In this document: positions 30,865 through 53,151 of the stretch, one piece after another
Position numbering within the stretch: position 1 is the stretch's first letter
Layout of the letters: each line of letters starts with the position of its first letter
Origin: an uncultured Candidatus Saccharibacteria bacterium
GTDB taxonomy: Bacteria; Patescibacteriota; Andersenbacteria; UBA10190
Assembly (NCBI GenBank): GCA_964359735.1
Contig: CAYHTZ010000006.1
Location: 3,898 to 67,897, forward strand
Length of the DNA stretch: 64,000 bases
Reading direction: 5' to 3'
Notes under the pieces: generated by a model
What the model was told of the DNA's origin: nothing
Databases searched by the model: none
The model's input: the letters and a program-made list of their open reading frames with translations, nothing else
Made by a program: the position numbers and the translations under genes

Positions 30865-30865
30865 T

Positions 30866-37261: not shown

Positions 37262-37315
37262 GGGTGTAGTATACTGCATGTGATGGAAGTAGCACCTCGG
37301 CCGGCGTCTGCGCCA

Positions 37316-37846
37316 ATGAGTGTCAGAGCGATAGTTCTCTGGTTGGTGGTTAGCGCGGTGGTGGGGGCATTGGTACTCATGGTTGCTCTTTTGGCCATGA
37401 GCCGTTCTCGGCTCCAGGCCAGGAATGTTCAGCTGGAAAAGGACCTTGTTTTCTACCAGAGCACGGATCTGGCTAAGGAGCTGGAGATTTCCCGTCTTAC
37501 GTTGCGGGACAGTGAAGCGCAGCAGGCAGAGGCTAAGCAGAAGTTGGCGGCGGCTGAGAGTGCATTGCTGGCGCTTCGTCAGGAACTGGCGCGGATACCA
37601 TCTATAACGAACATCATTAGTATGATGATGGCCACGTTTGCCAAGCAGCCTCCCAGCTGCTACAGCGCGGCTGACCGGGAAAACGTAGACCAGGCTCTGG
37701 CAGCGCTGGGAGACTCGGCTTGGAGCAGCTTGTGGAGTAGCTTTGTCAGTAGCACAGTGTCGGCGAACTGCAGTTTTTCTCCAGAACTACTCGAGAAAGC
37801 AGTTGTCTATGGTCTAAATAGGGTTTCTGACATGGCGAAGCAATAG
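37316..37846 (+). CDS. membrane-anchored coiled-coil hypothetical protein
   Basis: Start uncertain (37283 or 37316). Confidence 0.4.
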   Translation: MSVRAIVLWLVVSAVVGALVLMVALLAMSRSRLQARNVQLEKDLVFYQSTDLAKELEISRLTLRDSEAQQAEAKQKLAAAESALLALRQELARIPSITNIISMMMATFAKQPPSCYSAADRENVDQALAALGDSAWSSLWSSFVSSTVSANCSFSPELLEKAVVYGLNRVSDMAKQ

Positions 37847-37900
37847 TTATCCACAGCTGGCGTGTAACTCCTGGTTTTCAAAAGGGTATAATTTTTCACG

Positions 37901-38884
37901 ATGGTTCATAAAGGAGGGAGGAAGAAGCGATTCAAAAAACTGGCGCCCATAACCTTGCTGGCGGGAGCGGCATTGGTGGGAGCTGTACTAGTTCAGAAAG
38001 GCTCTTTTTTTCAAACAAGCGGGAGGTCACCAAAGATTGAATCAGTCTCACCATCTCCCATCGTAGTTGGGAAAGAGTTTACCGTTACGGGTTCTGGATT
38101 TACCACCGAGGAGGAATATGAAGTCTTTAAGGGGAAGGGCTCTGTTGTAGCAGAACCAAGAAGAGATGTCTTAACTTCCTATCCAGGCAATTGGTACCAG
38201 TTGAGAGGGAGACTGCATGGCCGTCCAGTTTTTTCGCCAGATGGGAAGACGCTTACGTTTGAGCTTAGTTTAAGCTCTAAAGAGGTGCCGGAAAATTGTC
38301 TTACAGAAACAACTGGTAAAAAGTGCCAAATTCCAATCCAAATAGTTAATGCCGCCGGGGTGGCAAGTAATGTTAAGCTGATAGAAGTTTTTATTCCCGA
38401 GATTAAACCACTCATTTTCTCTTCAGCCTATGCTCTCGATAACCCCACCAGTCTGAATGTTCCGGCTGGAGCTACGGATGTTGATGTAGCAAAGGTAAGA
38501 GTGAGAGCCGGTGCCCAAAATGATGCTGACGTAATACTTAGTAGTCTGATGGTTCAAACAGGCCCACCGACGCTTTCGATTGATTGTTACAATACCTTCG
38601 CAAACGTTAAAGTATATGAGGTTGAGAGCGGTCAGGCAGTCGGAATTGGAGTTCTTGGTCCATCATGGGCAAACTCTGGTTGTTGGGATATTTTTCCAAC
38701 ATATGTTGTTCTCCCACCGGGAACCGAAAAAACACTTCTTCTTAAAATGTCACTAAAGTCGACAGCCCAAGTGGGTCTGCAATTTAACTTAGGATTAACC
38801 ACTGGTTCGACTGGCTATATTGAAGAGATAGATTATCCTGCTCCTCAAGGATCAAGCCCCACGATCACCATAGTTGCTCCTTAA
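37901..38884 (+). CDS. secreted hypothetical protein (Ig-like/beta-rich)
   Basis: Signal peptide; lower GC. Confidence 0.5.
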   Translation: MVHKGGRKKRFKKLAPITLLAGAALVGAVLVQKGSFFQTSGRSPKIESVSPSPIVVGKEFTVTGSGFTTEEEYEVFKGKGSVVAEPRRDVLTSYPGNWYQLRGRLHGRPVFSPDGKTLTFELSLSSKEVPENCLTETTGKKCQIPIQIVNAAGVASNVKLIEVFIPEIKPLIFSSAYALDNPTSLNVPAGATDVDVAKVRVRAGAQNDADVILSSLMVQTGPPTLSIDCYNTFANVKVYEVESGQAVGIGVLGPSWANSGCWDIFPTYVVLPPGTEKTLLLKMSLKSTAQVGLQFNLGLTTGSTGYIEEIDYPAPQGSSPTITIVAP

Positions 38885-38895
38885 TCCGTGGTGCT

Positions 38896-38918
38896 GATTC
38901 CGCTCCAGGAGCGGAATT
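38896..38918. terminator. hairpin GATTCCGCTC-CAG-GAGCGGAAT between convergent genes
   Basis: Same GATTCC...GGAATC outer stem as the 35491/36725 repeats. Confidence 0.35.
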
Positions 38919-38981
38919 GGGGACTGCAAGCTTTTTCAATCTCCTTACACCTACGAAGTGTAAAGAGGTGTGTCAGTGAGC

Positions 38982-40127
38982 TTAGAACGTAGCGCACTGG
39001 CCGTAGACTTTGAGCTGCATGGTGCCCGAAGTGAGGTTGCGGGTGCTGAACTTCCAGAATCCGTTGGCGGTGGTGTAGTACGAATTGTCGATTGGGCTGC
39101 CGAAGGAATACCCTCCCATGACGAGCAAGCCCTCGGTACAAGCCACGTCGCTGCCGTCTCGTACATTCGAGGGAATGTTTTTGTTCTTCTGGATTTGAGT
39201 GAGAGTGATGGGTCCACCGGAGTAACAATTTACGAAGACGGAGAGAGGATGTGATGATCGCGTGGGGTTTTTGGCCTTTATCTGCCAGCCGTTGCCGACT
39301 CGGTTTGAGAAAATGACTTGCAGGTTGTCGGCGTAAAAACCGCCGCTTAGCGCCGTGTGTCCGTCGGGGCAGTCTTTAGTTACCTCACCGATGGCGCCGG
39401 AGGCGACGGTGGTGCTGTCCGCTCGGACTGATACCGACCCGGGCAGCCCCGAGACGCATTGGGCTCGGGCAGATAGGCCCGCGGGGGCGAGCGCTGAATT
39501 GTGAGCCTCAACATACCACCCTTGTCCAGATCGGTAGCTGCGCCAAATTTCGGTGTCGTAGGTGGCGGTAAAGCCTCCGCCGACAATCGTTGACCCGGCG
39601 GGGCATTCGGCGCGCGCAGAAGCGGAGCCGCCAGCGGCGACTGTGGATTGGCTACTGGAGCTAAGAAGTTCCGGAGTTGGGGCGGGTGTTGAGGTGGGAG
39701 TGGCTGCTTCTTCTGGCGTAGGTGTGGCGGTAGTGCTACCTGTCCCGAAGCGTGGTTGGGGGCGTGCGTAGGTGGGAGAAGGTGTGCTAGCAGACGCAGC
39801 GCCAGTTGCCGCCGGAGATGGTTCCGAGATTGATTGAGATGAAGAGGCTGAAGATAATGTTTCCGTACCTTGCTCGTCAGCTTCTTTAGTGAGATTTTCT
39901 ACTTCGTCAGCTACGGGGAGCTTACCAAAGATGCCGAAATTATTGCGAGTGAGTGGGGTGGTGAGTGAAGTTTGGGCTGTGAAGAGCCACACGATGCCGC
40001 CGGCCAGAGTAATTAAAGCCAAACCAATAATTATAATGACAAGGATACGCTCGAGGTGCTTTTCGGTAAGAAGTTTCTTTTCTGGTGCAGACGAGGGAAT
40101 AGTCGGAGTGATATTTTCTGGTGTCAT
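38982..40127 (-). CDS. membrane-anchored hypothetical protein with duplicated Cys-containing domain (CP.G.T..GGGF)
   Basis: TM segment; internal duplication. Confidence 0.5.
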   Translation of the reverse strand: MTPENITPTIPSSAPEKKLLTEKHLERILVIIIIGLALITLAGGIVWLFTAQTSLTTPLTRNNFGIFGKLPVADEVENLTKEADEQGTETLSSASSSQSISEPSPAATGAASASTPSPTYARPQPRFGTGSTTATPTPEEAATPTSTPAPTPELLSSSSQSTVAAGGSASARAECPAGSTIVGGGFTATYDTEIWRSYRSGQGWYVEAHNSALAPAGLSARAQCVSGLPGSVSVRADSTTVASGAIGEVTKDCPDGHTALSGGFYADNLQVIFSNRVGNGWQIKAKNPTRSSHPLSVFVNCYSGGPITLTQIQKNKNIPSNVRDGSDVACTEGLLVMGGYSFGSPIDNSYYTTANGFWKFSTRNLTSGTMQLKVYGQCATF

Positions 40128-40891
40128 AGGTTAGGAAGGAGTGAGGAAAAGAAATCAGCGAATGATTCGAACCACGACGGTTTGTCGGTAATTCCCTTCA
40201 CTTGCTTTTTCGATGTTTGAATTTTAGCGGTTGGTTGATACTCAATTTTTAGTCGTGGGGAGTGGCCCGGTGGCATATCAAGACCGAATTGTTCAGAGGC
40301 TTCCGGGCGCTGCGAATCCGTACTCTCGAAGGCAATGGCGTAATCATTTTCTTCCCAACTAGTTGGGTCCACATCCGGATTGCCGAGGTCGGCCGGCTGG
40401 GCGGAGACTGAGAAACCGCGGTTACTTTCCGGGTGACGGAGCCAATCTTTGACTACCTCGGTGACATCGAATGAGACCCACGTCTGGGCGCCTTGTTCCA
40501 TGACCGCCTCCACGTACGGGGAGTTTAGATTAATGCCGGGCCCGCGGACGGGAAAATTCTCCACTGTCCAATCATCTTCAGCTGGAGTGACGCGGACGCG
40601 AATGCGACCATGCCCAAATCCGCCGAAATGATACACCTGGAACAGGACGCGGCTGATTTGCGCGACGGGGGGAGCGTCGCTCAATTCATCGAATTTTACG
40701 CCGAATCGTGATTGGGTGAAGAAGTGGCTGCCTTCTAACCAGAGGTAGTAGGTGTTGAACGGGTAGCGGTCTGGTTCAAACTTGTCGCCCATGGCGTCCT
40801 GGGTGGCGTTAATCTGCATGGTGGCGGCCGAAGCGGGCAGCGCTGTGAGGATAGCGGACAGGAGGCTGAATATGATGGCGAGAGTTTTCAT
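40124..40891 (-). CDS. secreted hypothetical protein (DNRLRE-like domain?)
   Basis: Signal peptide; paralogous to the next gene. Confidence 0.45.
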   Translation of the reverse strand: MKTLAIIFSLLSAILTALPASAATMQINATQDAMGDKFEPDRYPFNTYYLWLEGSHFFTQSRFGVKFDELSDAPPVAQISRVLFQVYHFGGFGHGRIRVRVTPAEDDWTVENFPVRGPGINLNSPYVEAVMEQGAQTWVSFDVTEVVKDWLRHPESNRGFSVSAQPADLGNPDVDPTSWEENDYAIAFESTDSQRPEASEQFGLDMPPGHSPRLKIEYQPTAKIQTSKKQVKGITDKPSWFESFADFFSSLLPNL

Positions 40892-41607
40892 CTTGCGCCT
40901 GCGCGGGTTATACCAATAATCAGCGTCGGGGAGGACCCTAGCTCACGTGGGGTTAAGTCTTGAAGATCGGCGCTGCCGTTTGCGCGGGATTCTTTGCTAA
41001 AGAAAGCTACACCGAATGCACAATAGCAGGGGTTGGGAACATCGGCGGTAATGAACATGCCGTTGTTGGGCTGGCCATCTTCTAGCCACTTGCGCACAAT
41101 GCTCCTCACATCCAGTGTGACTGTTTGCCGGAAGAAACGCAGGCCATCCACGATGACCCGCGGTGATTGTTCTGACCAGGTATTGAACGACTCGGCGTCA
41201 AAAAATGGAGCGGTGGGGTGGTCCCAGACGACTTGGTTTTCGCCATTGAACATATCTTCCAGGCGGTGAGCACGGATTGGGGTAGAGCCCCAGCCGCGTT
41301 GCACGACTTGGGTTAATTTCAATTGCGCAGAATCGACACGGTCGCCGGGATTCAGATGAATGGAGCTCACGTCAAAATGGATCAAAATTTTCGAAGGAAT
41401 TTCACTGCTGGGTGGATCACTATAGTAGACCAGAAAGAGATACGGTTCCGATCCAAAATTTTCCTGCGGATGGTGGGGAAAGACGGTGGTGTCGCGGTCG
41501 GGTGCGAGCGTGAATTTTTCAGCGGCGCTTGCTGGATGGTACGTAAAGAGCGCTAGCATTCCCCCGATTGCCACCGTGCTAAGAAGAAGGAAGGAGCGCT
41601 GACTCAT
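40888..41607 (-). CDS. secreted hypothetical protein, tandem paralog of 40124-40891
   Basis: LDVRSIVRKWLEDGQPNNGMFITAD vs FDVTEVVKDWLRHPESNRGFSVSAQ. Confidence 0.45.
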   Translation of the reverse strand: MSQRSFLLLSTVAIGGMLALFTYHPASAAEKFTLAPDRDTTVFPHHPQENFGSEPYLFLVYYSDPPSSEIPSKILIHFDVSSIHLNPGDRVDSAQLKLTQVVQRGWGSTPIRAHRLEDMFNGENQVVWDHPTAPFFDAESFNTWSEQSPRVIVDGLRFFRQTVTLDVRSIVRKWLEDGQPNNGMFITADVPNPCYCAFGVAFFSKESRANGSADLQDLTPRELGSSPTLIIGITRAGAR

Positions 41608-41622
41608 ACCTACCTGCTGATA

Positions 41623-42108
41623 GTGTATACTGGAGTTATGAAGCTGGGAATGGTCGGGGTGGCGGTGGTAGCACTGCTGGTTGGAGCAACTGCCGGGTGG
41701 TTTGCGGCTCAATATTATCAGGGGTCAAACACGGGTATGAGCAAGACAGAGCTGCCTGATTCGCTGCCGGTAGTGGTATTTCAGCAGGCCGGGTTGCTGT
41801 CGGCGCGGGATAAAACCTTGCTGGAGGAGCGGGTGATTCAGCCAATGATTGATTACCACAACGAGAACGAGGTCAAGATTGTGACTATCTCAGTGAAGAC
41901 ACCGGCTCACAGCGGGGAGGAATACGACATTGAAACGTTCTTCGTGGGGGGCGTCTATGAAGGGATGATATGGGGGAAGAAAGATGGAGACATTCCTTAC
42001 TGGGTGCCTGGCTGTCTTGGGCCGTGTGCGTTGAGTGATACTTTCCGCGCGAAGCACCCAGAGATCGTGGCGCAGATGAAAAAATACGGGACTCTAGCGG
42101 AAGATTGA
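41623..42108 (+). CDS. membrane-anchored hypothetical protein
   Basis: N-terminal TM segment. Confidence 0.4.
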   Translation: MYTGVMKLGMVGVAVVALLVGATAGWFAAQYYQGSNTGMSKTELPDSLPVVVFQQAGLLSARDKTLLEERVIQPMIDYHNENEVKIVTISVKTPAHSGEEYDIETFFVGGVYEGMIWGKKDGDIPYWVPGCLGPCALSDTFRAKHPEIVAQMKKYGTLAED

Positions 42109-42123
42109 TTGTAGGCGCTGGCG

Positions 42124-42759
42124 TTAGAGCAGATGGAAAGAGTCTAGAATTTGCTGGAAGACTTCGCGGCCTTGGGGGTATGTGTCAGGGTTGTACACAA
42201 AAGAGAAGGTGTAGGTAACGCCTTCATGGTGGATCATGGCATCGACCTGCTGGCCGAGCATGGTGCTGGGGTCGTTCTGGGCTCGGAATGAACCGGGAAT
42301 GCTATCAATAATAATCGGTCGGCTGGCGATGCCGGGACGGCTCATCACTTCATTGGGGTCACCGGGGCCGGCGTGCAAGCCGAATGACGCGCCGCGTTCG
42401 TAGTACTGGGGAACAAAGGGGCCATCGGTGTTTTCGTCAGCGCGAACAGAAAAATCAGGGCTTTGGGCACTGATGTAAGATAGTCTCACGCCTTTCTTGC
42501 CTTCACTGGCTGTAACTTTCCAGCCCGTGGGAAGAGTGATGCTATAAAGATTTGATTTGTCAGTGATGAGTTCCCCTTCGAGGGTTGGCAGGGGTGTTGG
42601 CGCTGGGGCGAGCCCCGTTTCAGAGGGACTGGCAGTTCCGCTCGCAGGAGCGGAACTTGTCTGAAACGGGGTAGGGCTTCTTAAGACAGCGTACCAGATT
42701 GCGGCCGCAAGGATGGCGAGGATAATAGCTGGACCAATCAGTAAAGGAAGACGTCGCAT
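42124..42759 (-). CDS. membrane-anchored hypothetical protein
   Basis: TM segment then linker TPFQTSSAPASGTASPSETG shared with the 14081 gene. Confidence 0.5.
   Translation of the reverse strand: MRRLPLLIGPAIILAILAAAIWYAVLRSPTPFQTSSAPASGTASPSETGLAPAPTPLPTLEGELITDKSNLYSITLPTGWKVTASEGKKGVRLSYISAQSPDFSVRADENTDGPFVPQYYERGASFGLHAGPGDPNEVMSRPGIASRPIIIDSIPGSFRAQNDPSTMLGQQVDAMIHHEGVTYTFSFVYNPDTYPQGREVFQQILDSFHLL
42613..42671. repeat. 59-bp nested palindromic cassette inside the CDS (outer arms CCCCGTTTCAGA/TCTGAAACGGGG, inner GTTCCGCTCGCAGGAGCGGAAC)
   Basis: Related to 14664-14729. Confidence 0.45.
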
Positions 42760-42775
42760 ACCGTGATGCTTCTTA

Positions 42776-43990
42776 TTGTATACTTTCGGTGTGAATTATG
42801 GAAAACTAGTGATTGTTTTTGCGGCCGGGCTGGCGATTTTTGGGCGAGCGCCCCAACTTTTTTTTGACCCGCGGCTGTGGGCGGAGGAAGTGACGGTGTA
42901 CTTGGAGCGGGGGCTCACCTGGCCGTGGTATCAAGCAATTTGGCTTCCCGATAGCGGCTACGTTAATTTGCTCGCGAATGGAGTTGGTATTCTGGAAGCG
43001 AGATTTGTGCCACTCGAATATGCTCCGGTTGTGCCACTCGTCGTTTCCTATCTCATCATGCTGCTGCCAATTGTGCTCGTGGTATGGAGCACAGGGGCTT
43101 GGCAGAATATTTGGAGTAAAGTCGCAGCTGCGGCGGTGATTGTGCTCACAGTGCCAAATCAGGAAGTGTGGCTGAATAGTATTACAAGCCAGTTTCACTT
43201 GAGTCTCGCTACCGGAATTATTTTGGCGCTGCCAGCGGTGGAATCTCTACGCCTGAAGTGGCTGCATCGCGCTGTTATTATTCTCGCCGGCCTGGGCGGC
43301 GCGGCTTCGATTCTACTGGCGCCATTGTTTATTTTTCGAGCTTGGAAGGATCGCTCCCGCGAGCGCGCTCTTCAGGCGGCAATACTGGCTGGTGTGGTGA
43401 TAGTGCAGCTTCTTATTTCGGCGCACTATGGATTGGGCAACCATGTGGTGAAGTTTATGCCCGGTATGTGGTGGCTCGTGATTATGGTGAAGAGTATGCT
43501 GTTGCCTTTCTTGGGAAGCGGAGGTGCTGCCGATCTCATCCCGCTATCTTGGCCGATGTACATTGGCGTGAGTGTGGCGGCCGTGAGTGGGGTAGTGGCG
43601 ATGTGTTGTGCGAAGGTAGCAGAAGCTCGCTGGCTCATAACATCCGCGCTCGCATTGATATTTTTTTCGCTCATTCTTTCGCTCGATGCACCAGCGAAAT
43701 TAGTGTCGCACTTGGTTGGTAACCGGTACTTCTTTGCGCCGAATGCCTTGCTGGGGTTAGCGTTGGTGGCCTGGATGTTTCATGTGCCATTTAAGAAAAA
43801 ATGGACGCGTGGGGTAGGAGTTTTTGTACTTATCTGGCTTGCAGTTGTAGGTGTGTGTGAATATTTCAATGCAGATCCGTTGTTTTTTGAAGGGCCGTCG
43901 TGGCGGACAGAGATTCACGCGTGGCGAGAGGATGCCTCGCATGTAGTTCGCGTCTGGCCGCGACCCTGGACGTGGGAAGTGCCACTTTAG
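42776..43990 (+). CDS. polytopic integral membrane protein of unknown function
   Basis: About 10 predicted TM segments. Confidence 0.5.
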   Translation: MYTFGVNYGKLVIVFAAGLAIFGRAPQLFFDPRLWAEEVTVYLERGLTWPWYQAIWLPDSGYVNLLANGVGILEARFVPLEYAPVVPLVVSYLIMLLPIVLVVWSTGAWQNIWSKVAAAAVIVLTVPNQEVWLNSITSQFHLSLATGIILALPAVESLRLKWLHRAVIILAGLGGAASILLAPLFIFRAWKDRSRERALQAAILAGVVIVQLLISAHYGLGNHVVKFMPGMWWLVIMVKSMLLPFLGSGGAADLIPLSWPMYIGVSVAAVSGVVAMCCAKVAEARWLITSALALIFFSLILSLDAPAKLVSHLVGNRYFFAPNALLGLALVAWMFHVPFKKKWTRGVGVFVLIWLAVVGVCEYFNADPLFFEGPSWRTEIHAWREDASHVVRVWPRPWTWEVPL

Positions 43991-43993
43991 GAA

Positions 43994-44767
43994 TTAGTTG
44001 TAGATGGCGGCGGTGCCGGAAATGTCGCCAGTGGTGAGCGTATTTTTCTTTACTTCGCCTTTGGAACCGTAGCCATACATAGTGTTGTCCACGTAGTCGG
44101 CGGTGTACATATCATCCAGGCCCAGCCAGTGGCCCAATTCGTGGTTCATAATATTTTCCGCATCGTAGGCAGTGGATTCGGCACACTGGGCTTGAGTGGA
44201 CCACCTCCAGGAGAATTTTTTGTTCATAATGGTGTCAACGTCAACTACTTGGCCGGTGGACGTGTAGTAGCGCACGTAGGTGACACCAAGCGCGGAGCCA
44301 GAGGTGCGGCCCCAAGCGATGACGTTTTTCCCGTCGTAGGCTTGGCGGGTGACAGATGTGTTTGGTCCTTGGGTGAATGTAACTTTACTGTTGGCGGCGG
44401 CGGTCCAGTCAGCGAATCCGTTTCCCACAATAGTAGGTAAGTTGCTGCCACCCACGGAAGACGGCACGCTGCTGGGGTTCAAATTGTATGTCCAGTTGGC
44501 GGGAAGCTCCCAGCCGGCGGCACCTACCAAGGCGGCAGAGTCGGGGTCAGCGAGGTTGCAGACAAGCGCGGAAGATTCGTCTCTGGTTGGCCGTTCTGGG
44601 TGTGCGAAAACACGCACGTGTATTCCAGGATGTTCGGGATCGGGATAGTCGCCACTCTCTGCAGGAATGTCAGAAGGTCTGCCGTGGGCGGCACTGGCGA
44701 CGTGTGCGACAGCGATAAGAGTAAAAGCAGCGATGATACTGGCGATGGTCAGGGCAGGTTTGCTCAT
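43994..44767 (-). CDS. secreted zinc metalloprotease (metzincin-like)
   Basis: HELGHWLGLDD (HExxHxxGxxD/H) motif; signal peptide. Confidence 0.7.
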   Translation of the reverse strand: MSKPALTIASIIAAFTLIAVAHVASAAHGRPSDIPAESGDYPDPEHPGIHVRVFAHPERPTRDESSALVCNLADPDSAALVGAAGWELPANWTYNLNPSSVPSSVGGSNLPTIVGNGFADWTAAANSKVTFTQGPNTSVTRQAYDGKNVIAWGRTSGSALGVTYVRYYTSTGQVVDVDTIMNKKFSWRWSTQAQCAESTAYDAENIMNHELGHWLGLDDMYTADYVDNTMYGYGSKGEVKKNTLTTGDISGTAAIYN

Positions 44768-44826
44768 AGTGTGAGTATACCTATTCTATACGCCTTTTTG
44801 AGAAAAGGTGTCAAGTGGCTTGTGCC

Positions 44827-45492
44827 TTACGGCGTGGTCAAAGGGCCTTTCCGGCGCAGCCATTGGAGGACGTGTTTTATGACGATGAGCCACCAGAACA
44901 GCCAGAATATCCACGGAATCCACCACCACAGCCAGCACCACCAAAACCACCAGCAGAACCCCCACCACCAGCCCCAAATCAGCCAGGGGATAAACCAGAT
45001 CCACGGAATCCACCACCACCACGGCCAGGGCCAAGCAAATACCCAAAAGCGCTGTCTCCACCATTGCCAGGAAAAGACGAACCAGGGAATCCACCACAGG
45101 AACCCCCAGATGAGTCCCCACTGCCACCCCCAGTGCAGCCACTGGGGGAGATTTTCCAGAAGTTCGCTTGGCTGGGATAGCTGCATGTCTGTCGTGGTTA
45201 TGTCGGCCTGCTCTTGGCTTTGTTTTTCTAGGGCTTGCAGGCGCTCCTCAAAGTTTTGGATAACGTCAGTTTGCTCGATGGTTTGGGAGAGTGTGTCGAG
45301 CTGTTGCGGTTGGAGTTGTGACCGAGATTGGCTGGCTGCTTGGGGAGCAGGGGCTTCAGTTGCTGCCTGGTGGGTAGCGGTCTCATTGGTTTGGGCCCGC
45401 TGTGTGCCGGTGCCGGGAGCGGCAATTTGGGCCATGGTGATAGCTGGCAGCAGCGCTATTGTCCCCGTCAGTAGTAACATGCGCCAAATCAT
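44827..45492 (-). CDS. secreted protein with Q-rich coiled coil and a hyper-tryptophan-rich C-terminal about 100 aa
   Basis: Signal peptide MIWRMLLLTGTIALLPAITMA; about 38 Trp in the last about 100 residues; the opposite strand would need almost exclusive CCA Pro codons, atypical for this genome (CCG/CCC preferred in recA). Confidence 0.55.
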   Translation of the reverse strand: MIWRMLLLTGTIALLPAITMAQIAAPGTGTQRAQTNETATHQAATEAPAPQAASQSRSQLQPQQLDTLSQTIEQTDVIQNFEERLQALEKQSQEQADITTTDMQLSQPSELLENLPQWLHWGWQWGLIWGFLWWIPWFVFSWQWWRQRFWVFAWPWPWWWWIPWIWFIPWLIWGWWWGFCWWFWWCWLWWWIPWIFWLFWWLIVIKHVLQWLRRKGPLTTP

Positions 45493-45547
45493 GCTACTGG
45501 TGTACCACCTGGGTGAACTTTCGGTCAAGTGGAGTAAGATTAGGCAT

Positions 45548-46303
45548 ATGACTCAGCGTTGGTATCTGGTAGTGGGTAGTGTTGGCTTGATCGGGCTGGT
45601 TGTAATTGTTAGTACATACCAGTACTGGACTTCGCGCGGAAGAGAGCGCGTGGAGGGGTTGAGTAGCTTTGTCGAGAGGTTTACTGGAGACAAAGTCAAC
45701 ACGAGTACCTACGGCACAAAAAGCACGGGAGGGGGCACCATCAACCAGAACAATGCTTTGATTACAGCAGGGAAGGGAACGGACAAGAAAGTTTGGAATG
45801 TGCTATTCACAAAAGACGATGTAAGTTTTACCGCAGATTTTACGTCGCAAGCGCTCGTCACACTCACCAATAAACCGCCACTGGATGGGGATGTGATGGC
45901 AATTCTGGGTGCGGAGAAGCGGTCGGTGGTGACCACGGGAGAAAATAGCGGGATTAATTGTGAACTGAGTATTGGCAGCCATGCCACTGGCGCAATCCTG
46001 CGCATGGAAAATGCCGCGGGGAAGGGAAGCAACAGCGTGGATGTTCCCAAGACGAAGGGCACCATGAAATTATCGTACAACGCCAAGAATAAAACGGTCT
46101 CGTGCAGTTTTGGGGAAGCGAAACTCAGTTTGCCGCAGACAGCGCCGGCCGGCCGCTATGCGCTGACGCTTCGCTCTGGCTTGCATAAGATTGTAGCGGC
46201 GCACGGGGATGGGGAACACGAACCGGTGGCCGAAAGTGTACAGGGCGGCACGGGGAATTTTACGGCCACGTTTGATGACTGGCAGGTGACGATGAAGAAA
46301 TAG
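45548..46303 (+). CDS. membrane-anchored hypothetical protein
   Basis: The His-rich upstream part of the 567-aa track ORF is judged spurious; start at MTQRWYLVVG. Confidence 0.5.
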   Translation: MTQRWYLVVGSVGLIGLVVIVSTYQYWTSRGRERVEGLSSFVERFTGDKVNTSTYGTKSTGGGTINQNNALITAGKGTDKKVWNVLFTKDDVSFTADFTSQALVTLTNKPPLDGDVMAILGAEKRSVVTTGENSGINCELSIGSHATGAILRMENAAGKGSNSVDVPKTKGTMKLSYNAKNKTVSCSFGEAKLSLPQTAPAGRYALTLRSGLHKIVAAHGDGEHEPVAESVQGGTGNFTATFDDWQVTMKK

Positions 46304-46317
46304 TATTAGAAAAGGCC

Positions 46318-47259
46318 ATGGTGTCGAATGAACACATTGCGCAGGTGTTATACGAAATTGCAGATTATTTAGAAGTAGACGATATGCCATTTAAGCCAGA
46401 GGCATACAGGGAGGCAGCGAAGTTTGTGGAGCATTATAAGGAGGAATTGGTTGCTGTATACAAGCGGGGTGGAGTGGATGCACTGGAGGCATTGCCCGAG
46501 ATTGGGGAAAGCATGGCGAGAAAAATTGCAGAGCTGATTGAGACAGGGAAGCTCAAGTATTTGGAAAAAATGCGCAAGAAATTGCCGGTGGATATGGTTG
46601 GGCTGAATGCCATTGCCGGGGTAGGCCCTAAGACCATTGCCAAGCTGTACAAAGAGCACAAGGTGAAAACGGTAGAAGATTACGAAAAACTTAAGGTAGC
46701 CCAGCCTTCGCTAAAGCTACGGCGGGTGCCTGCTGGGAAAGCAGGTAGAAGATTGTATGCTGAGGTTAAGCCAATTGCTGAGAGTATTGTTTCGGCGTTG
46801 CGAAAATTGCCGCAGGCAAAAGTAGTCGAGGTTGCTGGGTCGCTGCGGCGCAAAACGGCTACAATTGGCGATGTTGATTTGGTGGCGGCATCAACGAGGC
46901 CGGCAAAAGTAATGGAAGTGTTTGCGAGCTTGCCGGAGGTGGAGCGGGTGTATAGCAAGGGAGATACGAAAACGCTGGTGCGACTTAAGGAAGGAATTGA
47001 TGCGGATCTTAGAGTTGTAGCGCCCGAAAGTTTTGGCGCCGCGATGCAATATTTCACGGGGCCGAAAGAACACAGCATTGCCACCCGCCAATACGCGCGC
47101 GACCGCGGCCTGAAGCTGAATGAATATGGCTTATTCCGCGGCAAAAAGAAATTGGCTGGGAAAACTGAGAAAGAAATCTACGATGTTTTGGGCATTAAGC
47201 TGGAGAAGCCGGGGGAGAGGTCTGGAAAGCTCACTGAGAAAAGGCTTGAAGAACGCTAG
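46318..47259 (+). CDS. DNA polymerase beta-like (family X) protein, short form without PHP domain
   Basis: HhH lyase or 8-kDa region plus nucleotidyltransferase motif GSLRRKTATIGDVDLV. Confidence 0.8.
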   Translation: MVSNEHIAQVLYEIADYLEVDDMPFKPEAYREAAKFVEHYKEELVAVYKRGGVDALEALPEIGESMARKIAELIETGKLKYLEKMRKKLPVDMVGLNAIAGVGPKTIAKLYKEHKVKTVEDYEKLKVAQPSLKLRRVPAGKAGRRLYAEVKPIAESIVSALRKLPQAKVVEVAGSLRRKTATIGDVDLVAASTRPAKVMEVFASLPEVERVYSKGDTKTLVRLKEGIDADLRVVAPESFGAAMQYFTGPKEHSIATRQYARDRGLKLNEYGLFRGKKKLAGKTEKEIYDVLGIKLEKPGERSGKLTEKRLEER

Positions 47260-47282
47260 CAGGGAAGGTAGGCTAGGGACAG

Positions 47283-47561
47283 ATGGCTAAACCTCAAGTT
47301 ATTGGCACGGTTTCTCATTACTACGACCATATTGGCGTGGCGGTGGTTGAGCTTACCAAGCCACTGAAAAGCGGCGAGACCGTAACGTTTTTACGGGGCG
47401 AGCATCACCTAGTTCAGCCTGTGACTTCAATGCAGATTGACCACACGAATGTGGAGAAGGCTAAGGCGGGCACAAGTGTTGGAGTAAAAGTGGAAGCAAG
47501 TGTACAGCCAGGCGCGAAGGTATATCGGGGCGAGGTACCTGCTCCGGTAGCGGTCAGGTAA
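47283..47561 (+). CDS. small beta-barrel protein (translation-protein-like fold)
   Basis: ORF only. Confidence 0.45.
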   Translation: MAKPQVIGTVSHYYDHIGVAVVELTKPLKSGETVTFLRGEHHLVQPVTSMQIDHTNVEKAKAGTSVGVKVEASVQPGAKVYRGEVPAPVAVR

Positions 47562-47668
47562 AAGCAGGGTAGTTAAAAAGTAGCTTTGTAAGGCTGCTTT
47601 TTGTTGTTTTTTTGACTTTTTTCTTTGTCCATACTATTGTTGGCTGGACAATTAAAGTTGTCTCGAGT

Positions 47669-49546
47669 ATGAAATCCCTATTTAAATCACAAACTTCATA
47701 CGAGCTGATGGACCTTTTGGCGCGGCAGCCCAAGAAGAACTTCTTCTTAGCGGAGCTCGCGAAGACACTGCAGAAAGACAAGGCGAATGTGACGCGTGAG
47801 CTCGATAAACTGCACCAAGAAGGCATCGTACGCGTGGAAGAAAAAGGCGGGAAAAAGTTTTATGGTTTAAACCAGGGCTACGACGGCATTAAGGAGCTCG
47901 TCGGCTTGCTAGAGAAGCACCGCAGCAAAGATTTCGAGACGAAGTTCAAGCGCAGCTGGCTCCTCGCCGAAGACATTCCCAACATGGATCCATTTTTCAG
48001 CCAGATTTGGATGAACTGTTTCGTGAAGGAGTTTGCGGAGCCCAGCGGGCGGGCTTACGAATGTATTGCAGCCATTTACCAGGATTATCACCTCTGGTTC
48101 TACTTTGACGAGAAAGACGCGCACGCGGTGGCACAGAACATTGTCGATCGATTCGATGAGAATCCTGACTTCATGGATGAAGTGAACCGCGAAATTGTGC
48201 GGCACTCCGACGTTCTGCGCGATTTTGCCGAAAAGCTTCCCGAAGAGAAGTTGGAGAAGCTTTCAAATCAAAAGTTATGGCAGCTCTACCGTGACCATGA
48301 GGACACGCACAAGGCCTACTATCAGTGGGCATGGATACCAGTGGCGGTAGATATGTTTACGAATCACCTGACGGAATATGGTAAGAAATTGCTGCAGGAA
48401 ATAGAAGTGCCGGAGGACAAGGTGAATGAGTATTTAACACTGCTCACGCAACCTTCGCGGCCTTCCCCGATTAAGGAGGAACAAGATAGCTTAACTAAGA
48501 TTGCGATTGCGGTGCAGAAAGACTTCCAGCAACTGAAACTCTTCCAAGAACTTTTTCGCAAATTCAAGGAAGAGGATGTGAAGGAGTTCGGGCTTTACAC
48601 TCACAGCCCGGAATACGAAGCGCAATTTGAGAAGCGGGTGCAGGAGCTGGTGGAAACTATTCAGCCAAAGATATTGCAGGCGGTGCAAGAGGTGTACGCA
48701 CGATACTTTTACACCAAGTTTATTTTCACAGAAGAGCAAGGCGTGTACAGCTTCGAGCACTACTTAAAAGCACTGGTGCGCCTCGTGAACCGTACGCCGG
48801 ATTTAGGAAAAGAGTTTCAGGAAGAGGAGCAGGAACTCGCGAATATTATTCAAAAACGGGAAGAGCTTATCAGGAAGCTCAAATTAACCAAACGGCAGCG
48901 TCAAATATTTGATGCCTGGGGAGAATTCATGATAACGAAGATTTACCGCCGGTACGCCCAGCTCTTCGCGCTCTACAAAATGACAGCGATTGTGGAGGAA
49001 ATCGGCCGTAGACTGGGGCTTACCTTGAAACAGACTCGGTTCATGAAGACGAGCGAGGTGGAAGCGGGTCTCTCAGGCGGCAGTGTGGATATGGATGAGA
49101 TTAAGCGGCGGGTGGAGTTCTCTGTTTCTTATGCGGATAAGAACGGGCGGGTGTTTTACTCCGGCGCCGAAGCCAAGAAGGCGGCGGAACTTATCAAAGG
49201 CAAAGAACAGGATTTGAGTGGAATCAAGGAACTGAAAGGCCAGGTGGGTTGCCAGGGCATGGCCACGGGAACCGTGAAAGTAGTGAACGTGATTGAAGAT
49301 ATGAAGAAAATGGAGGAAGGGGATATTCTGGTGGCCATTTCTACACAGCCGGATCTTTTGCCGGCCATGAAAAAAGCGGCGGCGTTTGTAACGGAGCAGG
49401 GCGGGGTAACGTCCCACGCGGCCATTGTGGCGCGGGAAATGAACACGCCGTGCGTGATTGGCACCAAGATTGCCACGAAGGTTTTGAAGGATGGCATGAA
49501 AGTGGAAGTTGACGCCACGAAGGGAATTGTGAGAATTTTGGATTAG
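47669..49546 (+). CDS. winged-helix domain fused to a large helical domain and a C-terminal PEP-utilising-enzyme mobile (phospho-His) domain
   Basis: wHTH LMDLLARQPKKNFFLAELAKTL...; C-terminal GGVTSHAAIVAREMNTPCVIG signature. Confidence 0.7.
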   Translation: MKSLFKSQTSYELMDLLARQPKKNFFLAELAKTLQKDKANVTRELDKLHQEGIVRVEEKGGKKFYGLNQGYDGIKELVGLLEKHRSKDFETKFKRSWLLAEDIPNMDPFFSQIWMNCFVKEFAEPSGRAYECIAAIYQDYHLWFYFDEKDAHAVAQNIVDRFDENPDFMDEVNREIVRHSDVLRDFAEKLPEEKLEKLSNQKLWQLYRDHEDTHKAYYQWAWIPVAVDMFTNHLTEYGKKLLQEIEVPEDKVNEYLTLLTQPSRPSPIKEEQDSLTKIAIAVQKDFQQLKLFQELFRKFKEEDVKEFGLYTHSPEYEAQFEKRVQELVETIQPKILQAVQEVYARYFYTKFIFTEEQGVYSFEHYLKALVRLVNRTPDLGKEFQEEEQELANIIQKREELIRKLKLTKRQRQIFDAWGEFMITKIYRRYAQLFALYKMTAIVEEIGRRLGLTLKQTRFMKTSEVEAGLSGGSVDMDEIKRRVEFSVSYADKNGRVFYSGAEAKKAAELIKGKEQDLSGIKELKGQVGCQGMATGTVKVVNVIEDMKKMEEGDILVAISTQPDLLPAMKKAAAFVTEQGGVTSHAAIVAREMNTPCVIGTKIATKVLKDGMKVEVDATKGIVRILD

Positions 49547-49548
49547 GT

Positions 49549-50550
49549 ATGGCTTTCACGAAACCATTTGAGAAGTTGTCGAAAGAAGACGTGGGTATTG
49601 CCGGGGGCAAGGGAGCTTCCTTGGGGGAGATGACGCAGGCGGGTATTCCCGTGCCGCCTGGGTTTGTGGTGCTCTCAGGCGCATTTGAAGAATTTCTGAA
49701 GGCCACAGATTTGAATGTGGAACTGGATTCCATTCTGGATCAGGTGAATCACACGGTGATGCACGAGGTGGATGGCGCTTCAGGAAAAATTCAGGCGTTA
49801 ATTCTGAGCAAAGAAATGCCGGAGGCGATCGCGAAAGAAGTAGAAGCGGGGTTCAAGAAGTTAGGCGCCAAGTATGTAGCGGTGCGCTCGAGCGCTACGA
49901 GCGAAGATAGCGCTGACGCCGCCTGGGCGGGGCAGCTCGATAGCTATCTGAATACTACCCACGAAGTCTTGCTTGCTAATGTAAAGAGGTGCTGGGCTTC
50001 GCTGTTTACGCCGCGGGCGATTTTCTATCGATTCGAGAAGGGCTTTCACCCTTCGACAGGCTCAGGGCAAGCTGGCAAACGCATTTCGGTGGCCGTGGTA
50101 GTGCAGAAAATGATCCAAAGCGAAGTTTCTGGGATTGCTTTTTCCGTACACCCGGTGACGCAGGACCGCGATCAGATGATTATTGAATCAGGATTCGGGC
50201 TGGGGGAGGCCATTGTGCAAGGCTCCATTACGCCGGATAGTTACGTGATAGAAAAGAGCGCCAAGAATATTTTGGATAAAAATATAACAGTCCAAGAAAA
50301 AGGACTGTTTCGCAGGACCCAGCCTTCGCATGAAGCTTCGGCGGGCAAAGGCGCGGAGGTTAATGAATGGAGAGACATTCCAACTGATAAGGGTGAGATG
50401 CCTACGTTGACCGATGAAGAAGTTTTGGAGCTCTCAGATTTAATTATGAATATTGAAAAGCACTACGGCTTCCCGGTGGACGTGGAATGGGCGCGGGAGA
50501 AGGACAAGTTCTATATTGTACAATCCCGGCCGATTACAACCTTGAAGTAA
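49549..50550 (+). CDS. PPDK_N-type ATP-grasp nucleotide-binding domain protein (PEP synthase / rifampicin phosphotransferase N-domain)
   Basis: GIAGGKGASLGEM...VAVRSSATSEDS...VVVQKMI...VEWA motifs; 2-nt gap from the upstream gene. Confidence 0.8.
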   Translation: MAFTKPFEKLSKEDVGIAGGKGASLGEMTQAGIPVPPGFVVLSGAFEEFLKATDLNVELDSILDQVNHTVMHEVDGASGKIQALILSKEMPEAIAKEVEAGFKKLGAKYVAVRSSATSEDSADAAWAGQLDSYLNTTHEVLLANVKRCWASLFTPRAIFYRFEKGFHPSTGSGQAGKRISVAVVVQKMIQSEVSGIAFSVHPVTQDRDQMIIESGFGLGEAIVQGSITPDSYVIEKSAKNILDKNITVQEKGLFRRTQPSHEASAGKGAEVNEWRDIPTDKGEMPTLTDEEVLELSDLIMNIEKHYGFPVDVEWAREKDKFYIVQSRPITTLK

Positions 50551-50582
50551 GACATTGCGCTGAGGTGAGTTTTTGTGGTTGA

Positions 50583-50855
50583 TTGACAAACACCAATCCC
50601 CATTTCATTATCTATAGTATGGGATCACCAGAAGGTCCTTTTGAAGAGGATCAGAATCCGTATCAATCTCTGGGGGCAGGAATCTTTTTGGAGCGGCTGA
50701 TTGCCCAAGCTGGGCAGGAGAAAGATGTATATGCGAAAGCTTTAGAGACAGCAGCAGAAGAATTAGTGCCTGAATATGTGCAACGTGTGTCCGCAGGTGC
50801 GACCGAGGATCAACGACAGCAGATTATTACCTTGGCGGAAAGTGAGAGAGCGTAG
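50583..50855 (+). CDS. hypothetical protein
   Basis: ORF only. Confidence 0.35.
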   Translation: MTNTNPHFIIYSMGSPEGPFEEDQNPYQSLGAGIFLERLIAQAGQEKDVYAKALETAAEELVPEYVQRVSAGATEDQRQQIITLAESERA

Positions 50856-51032
50856 TTACTATGAGCTTTTTTCGGCCGCGTAAAATTAAAGATCCAATCT
50901 CGGGTGAGGAGCGAATTGTCAGCCCCGAAGAGCAGATGGAAATGCTAGAAAAAGGGATTGTGTTTGATGTGCCGTCGGAAGTAGTGGACGACGAACCGAC
51001 ACGGGGAGCGCAACAAACTTCACCGGCTTCAG

Positions 51033-52088
51033 ATGCGTGAAGAGACGTATCCTATAGGGAGCCTTAACCTTCCGCTCGGGGAAGTGGATACCTCAGCTAT
51101 GGCTGCTGGGGAGTTCCAAGCATGGCGTGACGAGTGGGGATTTATTCCTGATGTGGAAGCGCAGGTTGCCGCCCAGCTTGAAAGGCAGGGGCTCAGGTTG
51201 ATGCAAGAGGATGTTCCGTCTGGCTACCATTGGCCTACTGTACGTGAATGGATTTTCCTCTGTTTCGAACAAAGGAACCCTCATCGGTTTTATCCGGCCT
51301 TTGTGCAACGGGGAGAAAGTGGGGAAGTTTTTTTCACAAAAACACGGGTGCGTTCCCGAGTAGAATTTGGAGGGTTGGAGCATGAAGCTAAAGTATTACG
51401 ACGTCTTCCCGAAGGAGTGAACGCACCAAAAGTGATTGATTATATTCCGGCGCGGGATCGGGAATTAGAGATGCTTGTTCTGAGTAGTGTTCGTTTTAGT
51501 GAAGGCATGGCTCTTCCGGCAGAGCAGTGGCAGCCAGCCAACGCGCAGTCTGCTGCGAGGCAGATTCGAGTACTGGAAACGATGCGCATGGAAGACGTGC
51601 CAGAGCTGTCTGCAGAAGTTGATGTTTCGCTTGAATATTTGTTAGAGCACGTAGGATCTTTTCTGCCTGCTGACCTCGATCAGACAACGAAAGAGGTTCT
51701 GCGTCAGTATTCTCCCCAGGAGACTTCATTGGTACTCGTTCATAGAGATCTGCAGCCGCGAAATATTGTGGTACTGAAAACGGGCGAATGTGTCCCGGTT
51801 GATTGGGAGCAGGGCGGAGCTGGGTACCGTGGTCAGGACGCTGGCCTCCTGTTGTGGCAATTATGGGGAAATGAATCCTCCCGCCAAGCCTTTATTGATA
51901 CTTATATTGAGGCGGATAATCTGGCTGATCGAGCGCAGCGGCTAGCTCGGCTGCGCTTTGGGGTTTTGCTCGAGTTTTTGCGGCAAGTGAGCTGGCATGC
52001 GAAGCGCCCTGACCAGGTTCAAGCTGAGATTGCCAGGCTAGGCCCTCGATTAACTGAAATACTGGCTACCCTGGCTGAGCAGACATAA
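51033..52088 (+). CDS. phosphotransferase-family kinase (APH/choline-kinase-like fold)
   Basis: Catalytic loop LVHRDLQPRNIVV and VDWEQGG..YRGQD. Confidence 0.7.
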   Translation: MREETYPIGSLNLPLGEVDTSAMAAGEFQAWRDEWGFIPDVEAQVAAQLERQGLRLMQEDVPSGYHWPTVREWIFLCFEQRNPHRFYPAFVQRGESGEVFFTKTRVRSRVEFGGLEHEAKVLRRLPEGVNAPKVIDYIPARDRELEMLVLSSVRFSEGMALPAEQWQPANAQSAARQIRVLETMRMEDVPELSAEVDVSLEYLLEHVGSFLPADLDQTTKEVLRQYSPQETSLVLVHRDLQPRNIVVLKTGECVPVDWEQGGAGYRGQDAGLLLWQLWGNESSRQAFIDTYIEADNLADRAQRLARLRFGVLLEFLRQVSWHAKRPDQVQAEIARLGPRLTEILATLAEQT

Positions 52089-53151
52089 GTTTCATGATTG
52101 CCTGATAGGCGTTGGGCTCTCCCGGGACGAAGTGCTTGGCTTGGGCGGCTTGCATTCGCTTTCGGGCTTCTTCGTTGTAGAGAAGCGTATCCACTGAAGT
52201 GGTTGTTTCAGAAAGCGGGGTGAGTTTCGTTTCCATAAAACACGTGCCAGCGCGAGCAAGCGGTGAGAGTTCCCAAATATGCTGTTCAGGAATCGTGGGA
52301 TGGCCGGGAATGTCGGCATTGGCAATGACGGGTATTTGAGCGGCGATAGCTTGAGCAAGCGTGCCCATGCCGTGATGCTGGAATACGAGATCGCTCGCGG
52401 CGAGCGCCCCATAAAAATCATCGATAAAGGTCTTTTCCGTAACCCAGGGGGGCACAGGTTGTGAAAGAGGTGGGCCAAGGTAGAGCACGCGAGTGTTTTT
52501 TCCTCGGCTGCGCAGCTGCCTCACCGAACCCAGCAGCTTTTCAATTACCCAGGGGCGGTGATCGGCACCTCGCCCGCTGGCATACAAGAAAATGAGTTTT
52601 TCATCTTCTTTCAGTTGAAATGTTTTTCGAATGTTCTCTCGAGTCTCTGAGCTCGGCGGCTCATAGGAAGGCACGAAGCCGACCGGTTCCAATTTTTCGC
52701 GAACAGATTTTTCGATGGTAAAATTCCCCCCGTTTTCTTCCAGGCCTAATTCGAAAATCTTAGGAGGAAAGCCGATCAAGTAGCGATCGGCCCAGGTGAC
52801 GAACGGAAACCCGGGGAACTTCGCTCTGTCGAAAAGCCAGAAGGTGTCGAAGCAGACGGTTAGGGGTTTGTTGGGTGGCGGTGTTTCGCGAAAGAGGTCG
52901 TTTTTACGCCAGATTTTGGAATTGCAGAGCACCAGCACATCCGGAGTGTGAAGCTGGAGCTGCGCCACAAGGCTTCCTGGGGTGGGTGTAAAGGCAATAG
53001 TGAATTTGTCGCGATCCGACTTGATAAAATTCATGTTTGTGGCCTGCACCACAGCCAGCGTAACCGCGAAGCCCTGTGTGTGCAGGTGCCGGCCTAAGGC
53101 TTGGGCGTGGGCCACCTCTCCTGGCCCCATGGCAGCGAGAAGACACTTCAT
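52066..53151 (-). CDS. GT-B fold glycosyltransferase (UDP-glycosyltransferase/MGT-like)
   Basis: C-terminal HHGMGT motif. Confidence 0.5.
   Translation of the reverse strand: MKCLLAAMGPGEVAHAQALGRHLHTQGFAVTLAVVQATNMNFIKSDRDKFTIAFTPTPGSLVAQLQLHTPDVLVLCNSKIWRKNDLFRETPPPNKPLTVCFDTFWLFDRAKFPGFPFVTWADRYLIGFPPKIFELGLEENGGNFTIEKSVREKLEPVGFVPSYEPPSSETRENIRKTFQLKEDEKLIFLYASGRGADHRPWVIEKLLGSVRQLRSRGKNTRVLYLGPPLSQPVPPWVTEKTFIDDFYGALAASDLVFQHHGMGTLAQAIAAQIPVIANADIPGHPTIPEQHIWELSPLARAGTCFMETKLTPLSETTTSVDTLLYNEEARKRMQAAQAKHFVPGEPNAYQAIMKLMSAQPG

Follow-up and report, generated by a model that had tools for sequence, protein, structure and literature searches.

A tryptophan-saturated, probably membrane-embedded C-terminal domain in a small protein family of Patescibacteria

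A gene whose product carries an extremely tryptophan-rich C-terminal domain was analyzed together with its relatives and its surroundings in a 64,000-nucleotide (nt) stretch of DNA (the window) from contig CAYHTZ010000006.1 of assembly GCA_964359735.1, assigned to an uncultured Candidatus Saccharibacteria bacterium. The coding sequence (hereafter the W gene) occupies the minus strand at 44827..45492 and specifies 221 amino acids (aa) followed by a stop codon. Its domain of residues 118–205 (the W domain), which starts at W118 and reads WLHWGWQWGLIWGFLWWIPWFVFSWQWWRQRFWVFAWPWPWWWWIPWIWFIPWLIWGWWWGFCWWFWWCWLWWWIPWIFWLFWWLIVI, contains 37 Trp among 88 residues (42%). Trp density reaches 38% in the best 100-aa stretch, 50% over 50 aa and 53% over 30 aa; the first figure exactly matches the value of about 38% over about 100 aa given earlier by a model that saw only the letters of the window (the sequence-only reading). 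Trp accounts for 1.64% of codons in 29 long open reading frames (ORFs) of the window, the other long ORFs contain at most 8 Trp in any 88 aa, and the binomial chance of finding 37 or more Trp in 88 residues is 3e-42. The longest form of the ORF, 44827..45528, opens at a TTG at 45528 and has an internal ATG at 45492. The ATG is preferred as the start, since the N-termini of homologues align with MIWRMLLL..., an AGGTGG sits 12 nt upstream of this ATG, and a divergent plus-strand gene (MTQRWYLVVG...) begins at 45548, 19 nt from the TTG.

Runs of TGG read as CCA on the opposite strand, so several frames stay open, and four of the six frames are stop-free across the W domain in the window. The Pro-rich plus-strand ORF and the His-rich third frame described in the sequence-only reading are both present, as is a further, Val/Asp-rich shadow frame on the same strand as the W gene. 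A 567-aa plus-strand ORF at 44600..46303 is a chimera of the His-rich shadow frame and the real gene 45548..46303. Codon usage averaged over each of the six frames (synonymous log-likelihood) gave scores of 0.05 for the Trp frame, −0.04 for the Pro frame and 0.04 ± 0.04 for real genes; the codon bias of this genome is weak, and frame scoring of this kind hardly discriminates. Counts of specific codons do favor the Trp frame. In the Pro-rich ORF 38 of 42 Pro codons are CCA, compared to 22% in real genes (P = 4e-21), and in the His-rich frame CAC makes up 20 of 21 His codons. Outside its Trp codons, the Trp frame shows ordinary mixed usage. The argument from CCA codons by which Trp had been taken as the selected reading is thus upheld by direct counting, and comparative data settle the matter.

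For the comparison, the window was codon-aligned with six homologous loci. Differences were concentrated on the third position of Trp-frame codons; between the window and locus L005 there were 16 at the first, 11 at the second and 38 at the third. Since the antisense His frame shares the wobble position of the Trp frame, an excess at position 3 is insufficient alone, and the synonymous fractions of codon differences were compared too. This fraction was 0.43 in the Trp frame and 0.23 (His), 0.22, 0.13, 0.09 (Pro) and 0.07 in the other five. TGG was present in all six sequences at 24 of 92 codon columns. The Pro frame is interrupted by stops in homologue L007. Upstream, the Trp frame of relatives continues into signal peptides and, in the family member P0014, into an Ig-like domain of the Pfam MG2 family (1e-13). 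Given the anomalous codon counts in the other frames, the synonymous fractions, the TGG columns and the in-frame fusions, we conclude that the gene is genuinely protein-coding and that the Trp frame is the selected one.

The openness of TGG-rich genes in several frames has a practical consequence, as at least one public gene call for the family is wrong. On the public contig L039 (Logan ERR3478686) the gene call, 4648..5004, follows the Val/Asp-rich shadow frame (118 aa, 'AVVVVDSVD...'), and the real W gene lies at 4241..4969 on the plus strand. The W protein of L039 is absent from protein databases because the gene caller took the same-strand shadow frame, and protein-level searches probably under-count the family. 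In the window itself, the stop-free His-rich shadow frame at 44600..45547 (+) could mislead gene callers.

A search with the single sequence returned seven homologues with E values from 1e-15 to 1e-64. Profile searches gave 16 matches (14 at E <= 1e-10) among 1.84 billion representative proteins and 55 clusters at 90% identity among 5.8 billion proteins. A DNA-level scan of one genome per species, 185,579 species altogether, found seven loci, of which five belong to Saccharibacteria/Saccharimonas and two to Woesebacteria. A metagenome scan yielded 20 loci, several on contigs labelled Hain-...-01um, a label that we take to denote the 0.1-um fraction of groundwater at Hainich. No relatives were found among 2.9 million viral contigs. 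The closest named relatives of the window protein come from metagenome-assembled genomes of Saccharibacteria. With one exception, named members are called 'hypothetical protein' and are assigned to Candidatus Woesebacteria, Kerfeldbacteria, Saccharibacteria or the 'Patescibacteria group'. The exception, P0010, carries the NCBI label 'emp24/gp25L/p24 family protein, partial [Actinobacteria bacterium]'; its name probably derives from a weak GOLD/MG2 match in the ectodomain, and its taxon label likely reflects either an error of binning or an episymbiont's host.

The window protein has no match in Pfam and PHROGs/PADLOC (both at E <= 0.01) or in NCBIfam (E <= 0.1), and the W domains of P0006, P0015, P0016 and P0017 gave no meaningful match in curated families. 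Sequence-profile and fold searches of the PDB revealed nothing specific for the W domain; the best sequence matches, to a nuclear pore protein (E = 0.11) and VAMP2 (E = 0.51), are non-significant. Full-text literature searches on Trp-rich proteins of Saccharibacteria, Patescibacteria or the candidate phyla radiation (CPR), and on the motifs, revealed no description of the family or of its motifs. We conclude that these proteins form a small, rare and undescribed family found almost only in Patescibacteria/CPR. It is absent from the curated libraries searched, and no described membrane domain with such a composition was found.

The family is defined, by alignments A3-A5, through a W-saturated three-helix C-terminal domain of ~100 aa with invariant W, P, G and K positions. 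A 23-sequence alignment has 20 invariant columns. Fourteen are Trp (W118, W137, W150, W159, W166, W170, W185, W187, W189, W190, W194, W197, W200 and W201, the last eight being located in the third predicted helix), and the rest are G130, P157, P163, F167, P169 and K206. The domain retains 30–42% Trp in loci spanning 31–67% GC. It is under purifying selection, and the conservation of the Trp frame in homologues that the sequence-only reading required is found. A WW[IL]PW motif occurs once in each of the three W-domain segments, and at the DNA level a 21-nt repeat encodes WWIPW three times, with spacings of 90 and 81 nt. This recurrence suggests that the W domain arose by triplication of a unit of ~28 aa.

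The conserved unit consists of the C-terminal ~100 residues, and the N-terminal parts differ between members. The window protein shows both marks of the family, the conserved W domain and a signal peptide followed by a variable ectodomain. In the first type of N-terminal part, to which it belongs, a Q/T/P-rich linker is followed by a stalk helix. The second type has a domain of ~110 aa (FEFYNF...NCRGxxGCSTRGP) and an S/T-rich linker, and the third has one or two MG2 Ig-like domains and a stalk helix. An in-frame fusion of MG2 to the W domain is seen in P0014, with the Pfam score given above, in P0010, where the match is below the Pfam threshold, and in P0045 and P0047 according to precomputed Pfam matches. 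A fourth type comprises members with an enlarged W domain, P0015 and L018 (34..1056). Their sequences, read by eye, appear to contain an additional copy of the hairpin formed by the first two predicted transmembrane (TM) helices, TM1 and TM2, each followed by a basic loop (RRRK / KKQKK). Enlarged domains would have five predicted TM helices, and since the added helices are even in number, the predicted topology would be preserved, with the N-terminus outside and the C-terminus inside.

All full-length members open with a hydrophobic signal sequence. In the window protein the credible signal peptide of the sequence-only reading proved to be conserved in relatives, together with an A-x-A cleavage motif followed by Q; A21 and Q22 are invariant in alignment A1, and cleavage would be expected between them. 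In line with the coiled-coil segment of the same reading, a helical stalk is predicted at residues 63–98. The stalk contains the motif RLQALEKQ upstream of the W domain, its residues R84, L88 and E89 are invariant in alignment A1, and similar [RKQ]-x-x-x-L-E motifs occur in distant members. The stalk is possibly a coiled coil, through which the protein may oligomerize.

An AlphaFold2 model of the full protein has a mean predicted local distance difference test score (pLDDT) of 67, with values below 50 in the N-terminal linker and 10-residue block means of 68 to 88 across the three helices of the W domain. Modelled alone, the W domain has the same three helices, a mean pLDDT of 77 and a predicted template modelling score (pTM) of 0.56. 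The second of these helices is preceded by an irregular WPWPW segment; the peptide stretch of TM2 is WPWPWWWWIPWIWFIPW. Independently of AlphaFold, the periodicity of conservation is strongest at 90–100 degrees in all three segments, the value of an alpha-helix. Acidic residues are virtually absent from the W-domain segments, and basic ones are confined to loop 1 and the tail: averaged over 23 sequences, Lys and Arg together number 2.1 in loop 1 (142–149) and 3.7 in the tail, compared to 0.09 in loop 2. Physical partitioning scales favor the membrane strongly, with the Wimley-White octanol sums given in Table 1 and interface sums between −17 and −29 kcal/mol for the individual segments. The model, the Lys and Arg counts and the periodicity thus agree on three helical, hydrophobic segments in the window protein, with charges distributed as the positive-inside rule predicts. 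Given an exported N-terminus and this charge pattern, the domain most likely forms three TM helices with the N-terminus outside and the C-terminus inside. The W domain is probably embedded in the membrane and not a soluble secreted domain; of the earlier description as a secreted protein, export stands, and the helices and charge pattern point to a membrane-anchored product. Coordinates are collected in Table 1.

Table 1. The W gene, its predicted protein segments, overlapping shadow frames and the adjacent protease gene. Residue numbers refer to the 221-aa protein; octanol sums are on the Wimley-White scale.
Feature	Coordinates	Strand	Basis and remarks
W gene, coding sequence	44827..45492	-	221 aa and stop
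Signal peptide, residues 1-21 (MIWRMLLLTGTIALLPAITMA, then Q)	45430..45492	-	Sec-type; A21 and Q22 invariant in five closest sequences; cleavage predicted
Q/T/A/P-rich low-complexity linker, residues 22-62	45307..45429	-	predicted disordered, pLDDT <50 at 13-61; poorly conserved
Stalk helix, residues 63-98, with conserved RLQALE motif	45199..45306	-	AlphaFold helix 63-98
Trp-saturated domain, residues 118-205	44878..45141	-	conserved core of the family
Predicted TM helix 1, residues 119-141, contains LWWIPWF	45070..45138	-	AlphaFold helix 109-146; periodicity peak 100 degrees; octanol sum −21 kcal/mol
Basic loop 1, residues 142-148 (WQWWRQR)	45049..45069	-	predicted cytoplasmic; Lys and Arg counts
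Predicted TM helix 2, residues 149-173 (FWVFAWPWPWWWWIPWIWFIPWLIW)	44974..45048	-	AlphaFold helix 158-176; periodicity peak 90-95 degrees; octanol sum −33 kcal/mol
Predicted TM helix 3, residues 180-205 (CWWFWWCWLWWWIPWIFWLFWWLIVI)	44878..44955	-	AlphaFold helix 183-215; octanol sum −39 kcal/mol
Basic C-terminal tail, residues 206-221 (KHVLQWLRRKGPLTTP)	44830..44877	-	predicted cytoplasmic; K206 invariant, mean Lys plus Arg 3.7
Pro-rich antisense shadow ORF	44815..45180	+	not a gene: 9% synonymous, stops in L007, 38 of 42 Pro codons CCA
His-rich antisense shadow frame	44600..45547	+	23% synonymous; 20 of 21 His codons CAC
M10/metzincin-like protease with its own signal peptide	43994..44767	-	59 nt downstream of the W gene, same strand

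The explanation that we favor, with moderate confidence, is that the product of the W gene is exported and stays anchored in the membrane of the cell that makes it, a conserved Trp-saturated three-helix bundle tethering variable ectodomains. The protein would be exported via its Sec-type signal peptide, its N-terminal part staying outside the cell. In the window protein the outside part would consist of the disordered Q/T/P-rich linker and the helical stalk, and in relatives of Ig-like (MG2) or Cys-containing beta domains. The C-terminal ~100 residues would form an up-down-up bundle of three Trp-saturated TM helices, each with a WW[IL]PW-type motif, in an orientation fixed by the basic cytoplasmic loop and the basic tail. 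The W domain may thus be a module that fastens surface domains of various kinds to the membrane. Very strong partitioning into the bilayer and its interfaces is probably what the Trp side chains contribute, along with aromatic packing between helices or self-association.

Several observations weigh against this explanation. On the translocon ('biological') scale, applied with its central-position values, TM1 and TM2 have unfavorable scores (+7.7 and +8.1 in the scale's kcal/mol units), because these segments contain four to five Pro and Trp is not favored in the bilayer core. Kyte-Doolittle means of TM1 and TM2 also fall under the usual TM threshold. That neither scale clearly predicts the two segments is the main internal weakness of the model: insertion of the classical kind is uncertain, and the segments could instead lie at the interface or be re-entrant. 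The AlphaFold alignments were shallow (17–19 sequences) and the confidence of the models is moderate. In some members TM1 is immediately preceded by two Arg, which by the prediction would lie outside. Finally, the role of an anchor leaves the choice of Trp over Leu, Ile or Phe unexplained.

Comparison with known systems revealed partial likenesses. Indolicidin is a membrane-active, Trp/Pro-rich peptide with ~40% Trp (PMC3210996), a content that the W domain equals over a seven-fold longer domain with a predicted fold. Indolicidin and tritrpticin share with the W domain extreme Trp content with interspersed Pro (WPWWPW there, WPWPWWWWIPW in the window protein) and membrane affinity. However, they are 13-residue cationic secreted eukaryotic peptides, whereas the W domain is a non-homologous, conserved bacterial three-helix domain of ~90 residues, placed at the C-terminus of a signal-peptide protein with a predicted positive-inside topology. 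An antimicrobial peptide of the indolicidin type was accordingly rejected as an identity for the W gene product, in which ~90 aa of this composition are part of a 221-aa protein and charge is confined to the loop and the tail.

The C-terminal anchors of bacterial surface proteins, such as LPXTG and PEP-CTERM sorting signals, resemble the W domain in their position, in a basic tail that comes after the hydrophobic part, and in their association with variable exported N-terminal domains. They comprise one helix of ~20 aa dominated by Leu, Ala or Val, while the W domain has three helices in ~100 aa and is dominated by Trp; no LPXTG or PEP motif was seen in it, and its W and P positions are invariant, unlike degenerate sorting signals. 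Identity with a sorting signal was rejected on the ground of three conserved helices instead of one degenerate helix. The membrane-proximal external region (MPER) of HIV gp41 and the 'WW' region of the SNARE protein VAMP2 likewise consist of a helical stalk followed by a Trp-rich membrane-interacting sequence. In those proteins, however, 2–5 Trp lie at the interface of a single TM helix, compared to 37 in three helices here, and there is no significant similarity. TspO, the 'tryptophan-rich sensory protein', is a bacterial integral membrane protein noted for its high Trp content, roughly 10%, with five TM helices; a Pfam match to TspO/MBR (PF03073) was not obtained for the window protein. Class I holins have three TM helices, an N-out/C-in topology, a charged C-terminal tail and the size of the W domain alone, but the W family has signal peptides and large ectodomains. 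A holin or other phage lysis function was rejected, as there is no PHROGs match, no relative in the viral contigs and no lysis-gene neighbor. We rate the W domain as a probable membrane anchor for surface proteins, and its composition was found nowhere else in the searches made.

The gene directly downstream of the W gene, on the same strand, was described in the sequence-only reading as a secreted metzincin protease, and it does encode an M10/metzincin-like protease. Its product matches Pfam PF00413 (7e-7) and the NCBIfam MXAN_2677/2678-type metalloprotease (3.7e-15). The active-site motif is HELGHWLGLDD, with Asp at what we take to be the usual position of the third zinc-binding His of matrixins, as presumably in snapalysin-type enzymes; the snapalysin match itself is weak (0.004, NCBIfam). 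The protease family comprises at least 625 database clusters at E <= 1e-10, compared to 55 for the W family, and occurs in many CPR phyla; its few named relatives are from CPR (Daviesbacteria, Curtissbacteria and Moranbacteria).

Synteny with the protease in related genomes, a check proposed in the sequence-only reading, was found in L039 only. There the W protein shares 72% identity with that of the window and the protease 77%, and the genes have the same order with a 31-nt gap. In L001, with a 64% identical W protein, the 404-aa membrane protein (65%) and a 211-aa protein (56%) flank without a protease between them; the 251-aa gene and the family-X DNA polymerase (PolX) gene found on the other side of the W gene in the window are also missing. 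An M10 homologue was present in none of 35 W-domain loci and in none of the neighborhoods of three further members (37 loci when L001 is counted apart), and conversely the protease loci L040 and L041 (73% identity) contain no W-rich ORF. In an all-against-all blastp comparison of the ORFs of 12 non-redundant loci and the window, no gene was common to three or more loci save the shadow ORFs of the W gene; a DEAD-box helicase lies near the W gene in two loci only. A promoter and terminator scan produced nothing above shuffled expectation; a promoter-like TTGACA...TATAGA that the scan did not call can be read by eye in the 59-nt gap. Since the protease is absent from other loci and no other neighbor recurs, the W gene behaves as a stand-alone gene, and its adjacency to the protease is confined to one small clade. 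An operon partnership with the M10 protease, judged by family-wide adjacency, was rejected because the adjacency is limited to the window and L039.

Other explanations of the locus were weighed against a membrane anchor. It is extremely unlikely that the region is not Trp-coding and that either the Pro-rich or His-rich plus-strand ORF is real or the sequence is a non-coding CCA/TGG simple repeat. The four open frames, the poor discrimination by averaged codon usage and a weak period-3 CCA array at 44920-44970 (TRF) can be cited in its favor, but the synonymous fraction peaks in the Trp frame, the Pro frame is broken in L007, the CCA and CAC usage would be anomalous, the Trp frame of homologues continues into signal peptides and MG2, and the TGG columns are invariant across 31% to 67% GC. 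A functional pair of the W protein and the M10 protease, in which the W protein would be shed or processed by the protease or would tether or inhibit it, is consistent with the short distance between the genes on one strand, the same order in the closest relative L039 and the signal peptides on both proteins. We consider it very unlikely in view of L001, which keeps the flanking genes without the protease, the absence of M10 homologues from the other W neighborhoods, the proteases of L040 and L041 that have no W-rich ORF, the far larger protease family and the promoter-like sequence between the two genes.

A truly secreted, extracellular aromatic module that binds wall or glycans, or that self-aggregates into an amyloid-like surface layer, would agree with the signal peptide and with the Kyte-Doolittle and translocon scales, which give no clear prediction of TM1 and TM2; sugar binding is also common among aromatic residues. 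Yet the three segments are nearly free of polar and charged residues, basic residues are limited to one loop and the tail, both the helical periodicity and AlphaFold point to a helical hairpin bundle, and a soluble domain made up of 42% Trp plus I, L, F, V, P and G alone would be expected to be extremely insoluble. This alternative is improbable in our judgment. Somewhat less improbable, but still unlikely, is a membrane-active effector carried on the stalk, which would insert into, perturb or fuse with the membrane of a host bacterium or form a pore, and whose function would parallel that of Trp/Pro-rich antimicrobial peptides or of the Trp-rich membrane-proximal regions of viral fusion proteins. 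Its indolicidin-like W/P-rich composition, the signal peptide and helical stalk ahead of the module, the very large interface partitioning and the confinement of the family to CPR lineages, whose cultivated members are episymbionts, all speak for it. Against it, the positive-inside pattern and basic tail fit stable insertion in the producer's membrane, neither an immunity gene nor a conserved partner gene was found nearby, the module is devoid of the cationic amphipathic character typical of antimicrobial peptides, the likeness to indolicidin is compositional only, and the best PDB matches, including VAMP2, are non-significant. We assign a similarly low probability to the W module being a new membrane-active device of CPR episymbionts, oligomerized through the stalk, that inserts into or bridges to the host membrane for contact, for uptake of lipids or metabolites, or for fusion, or that acts as a transmembrane conduit of stacked indoles, e.g. 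for charge transfer. Should this be true, the composition would reflect a function beyond that of ordinary Leu/Ile/Val helices, and the rule of Trp only at the bilayer interface would be overturned.

Whichever role the W domain plays, its composition stands out. No amino acid is rarer than Trp, which is also widely held to be the most expensive to synthesize, and in membrane proteins it is normally limited to an 'aromatic belt' at the bilayer interface. CPR bacteria are usually unable to synthesize amino acids or lipids and scavenge both. The maintenance of 30–42% Trp over ~90 residues at 31% to 67% GC in such scavengers implies strong selection for an indole-specific property. The family is of interest for membrane-protein biophysics, as a natural case on which to study how the translocon inserts poly-Trp/Pro helices, how aromatic residues pack, and intrinsic fluorescence. 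For research on the CPR cell surface, the W domain is of interest as a candidate module of surface display or host interaction in Saccharibacteria, Woesebacteria and Kerfeldbacteria.

Other genes around the W gene were also inspected. The 404-aa polytopic membrane protein is encoded at 42776..43990 (+) and has no Pfam or NCBIfam match; its counterpart in L001 (6606..7826) is 65% identical. The real plus-strand gene 45548..46303 encodes 251 aa with an N-terminal hydrophobic helix and has no match in four libraries. It is followed at 46318..47259 (+) by the gene of a short, 313-aa PolX (HHH_8, palm, thumb) for which no PHP domain match was listed; many bacterial PolX proteins carry a PHP domain. 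Compared with L001, the window appears to have gained by insertion the protease gene to one side of the W gene and the 251-aa and PolX genes to the other. In a 644-aa protein encoded at 47612..49546 (+), a MarR-type winged helix at the N-terminus is paired, unusually, with a PEP-utilising 'mobile' domain at the C-terminus (5e-27). At gathering thresholds, Rfam revealed no RNA family (no tRNA, rRNA or riboswitch) in 1..64000. GC skew is positive throughout 42–48 kb whatever the strand of the genes, save in the W domain, where it is inverted.

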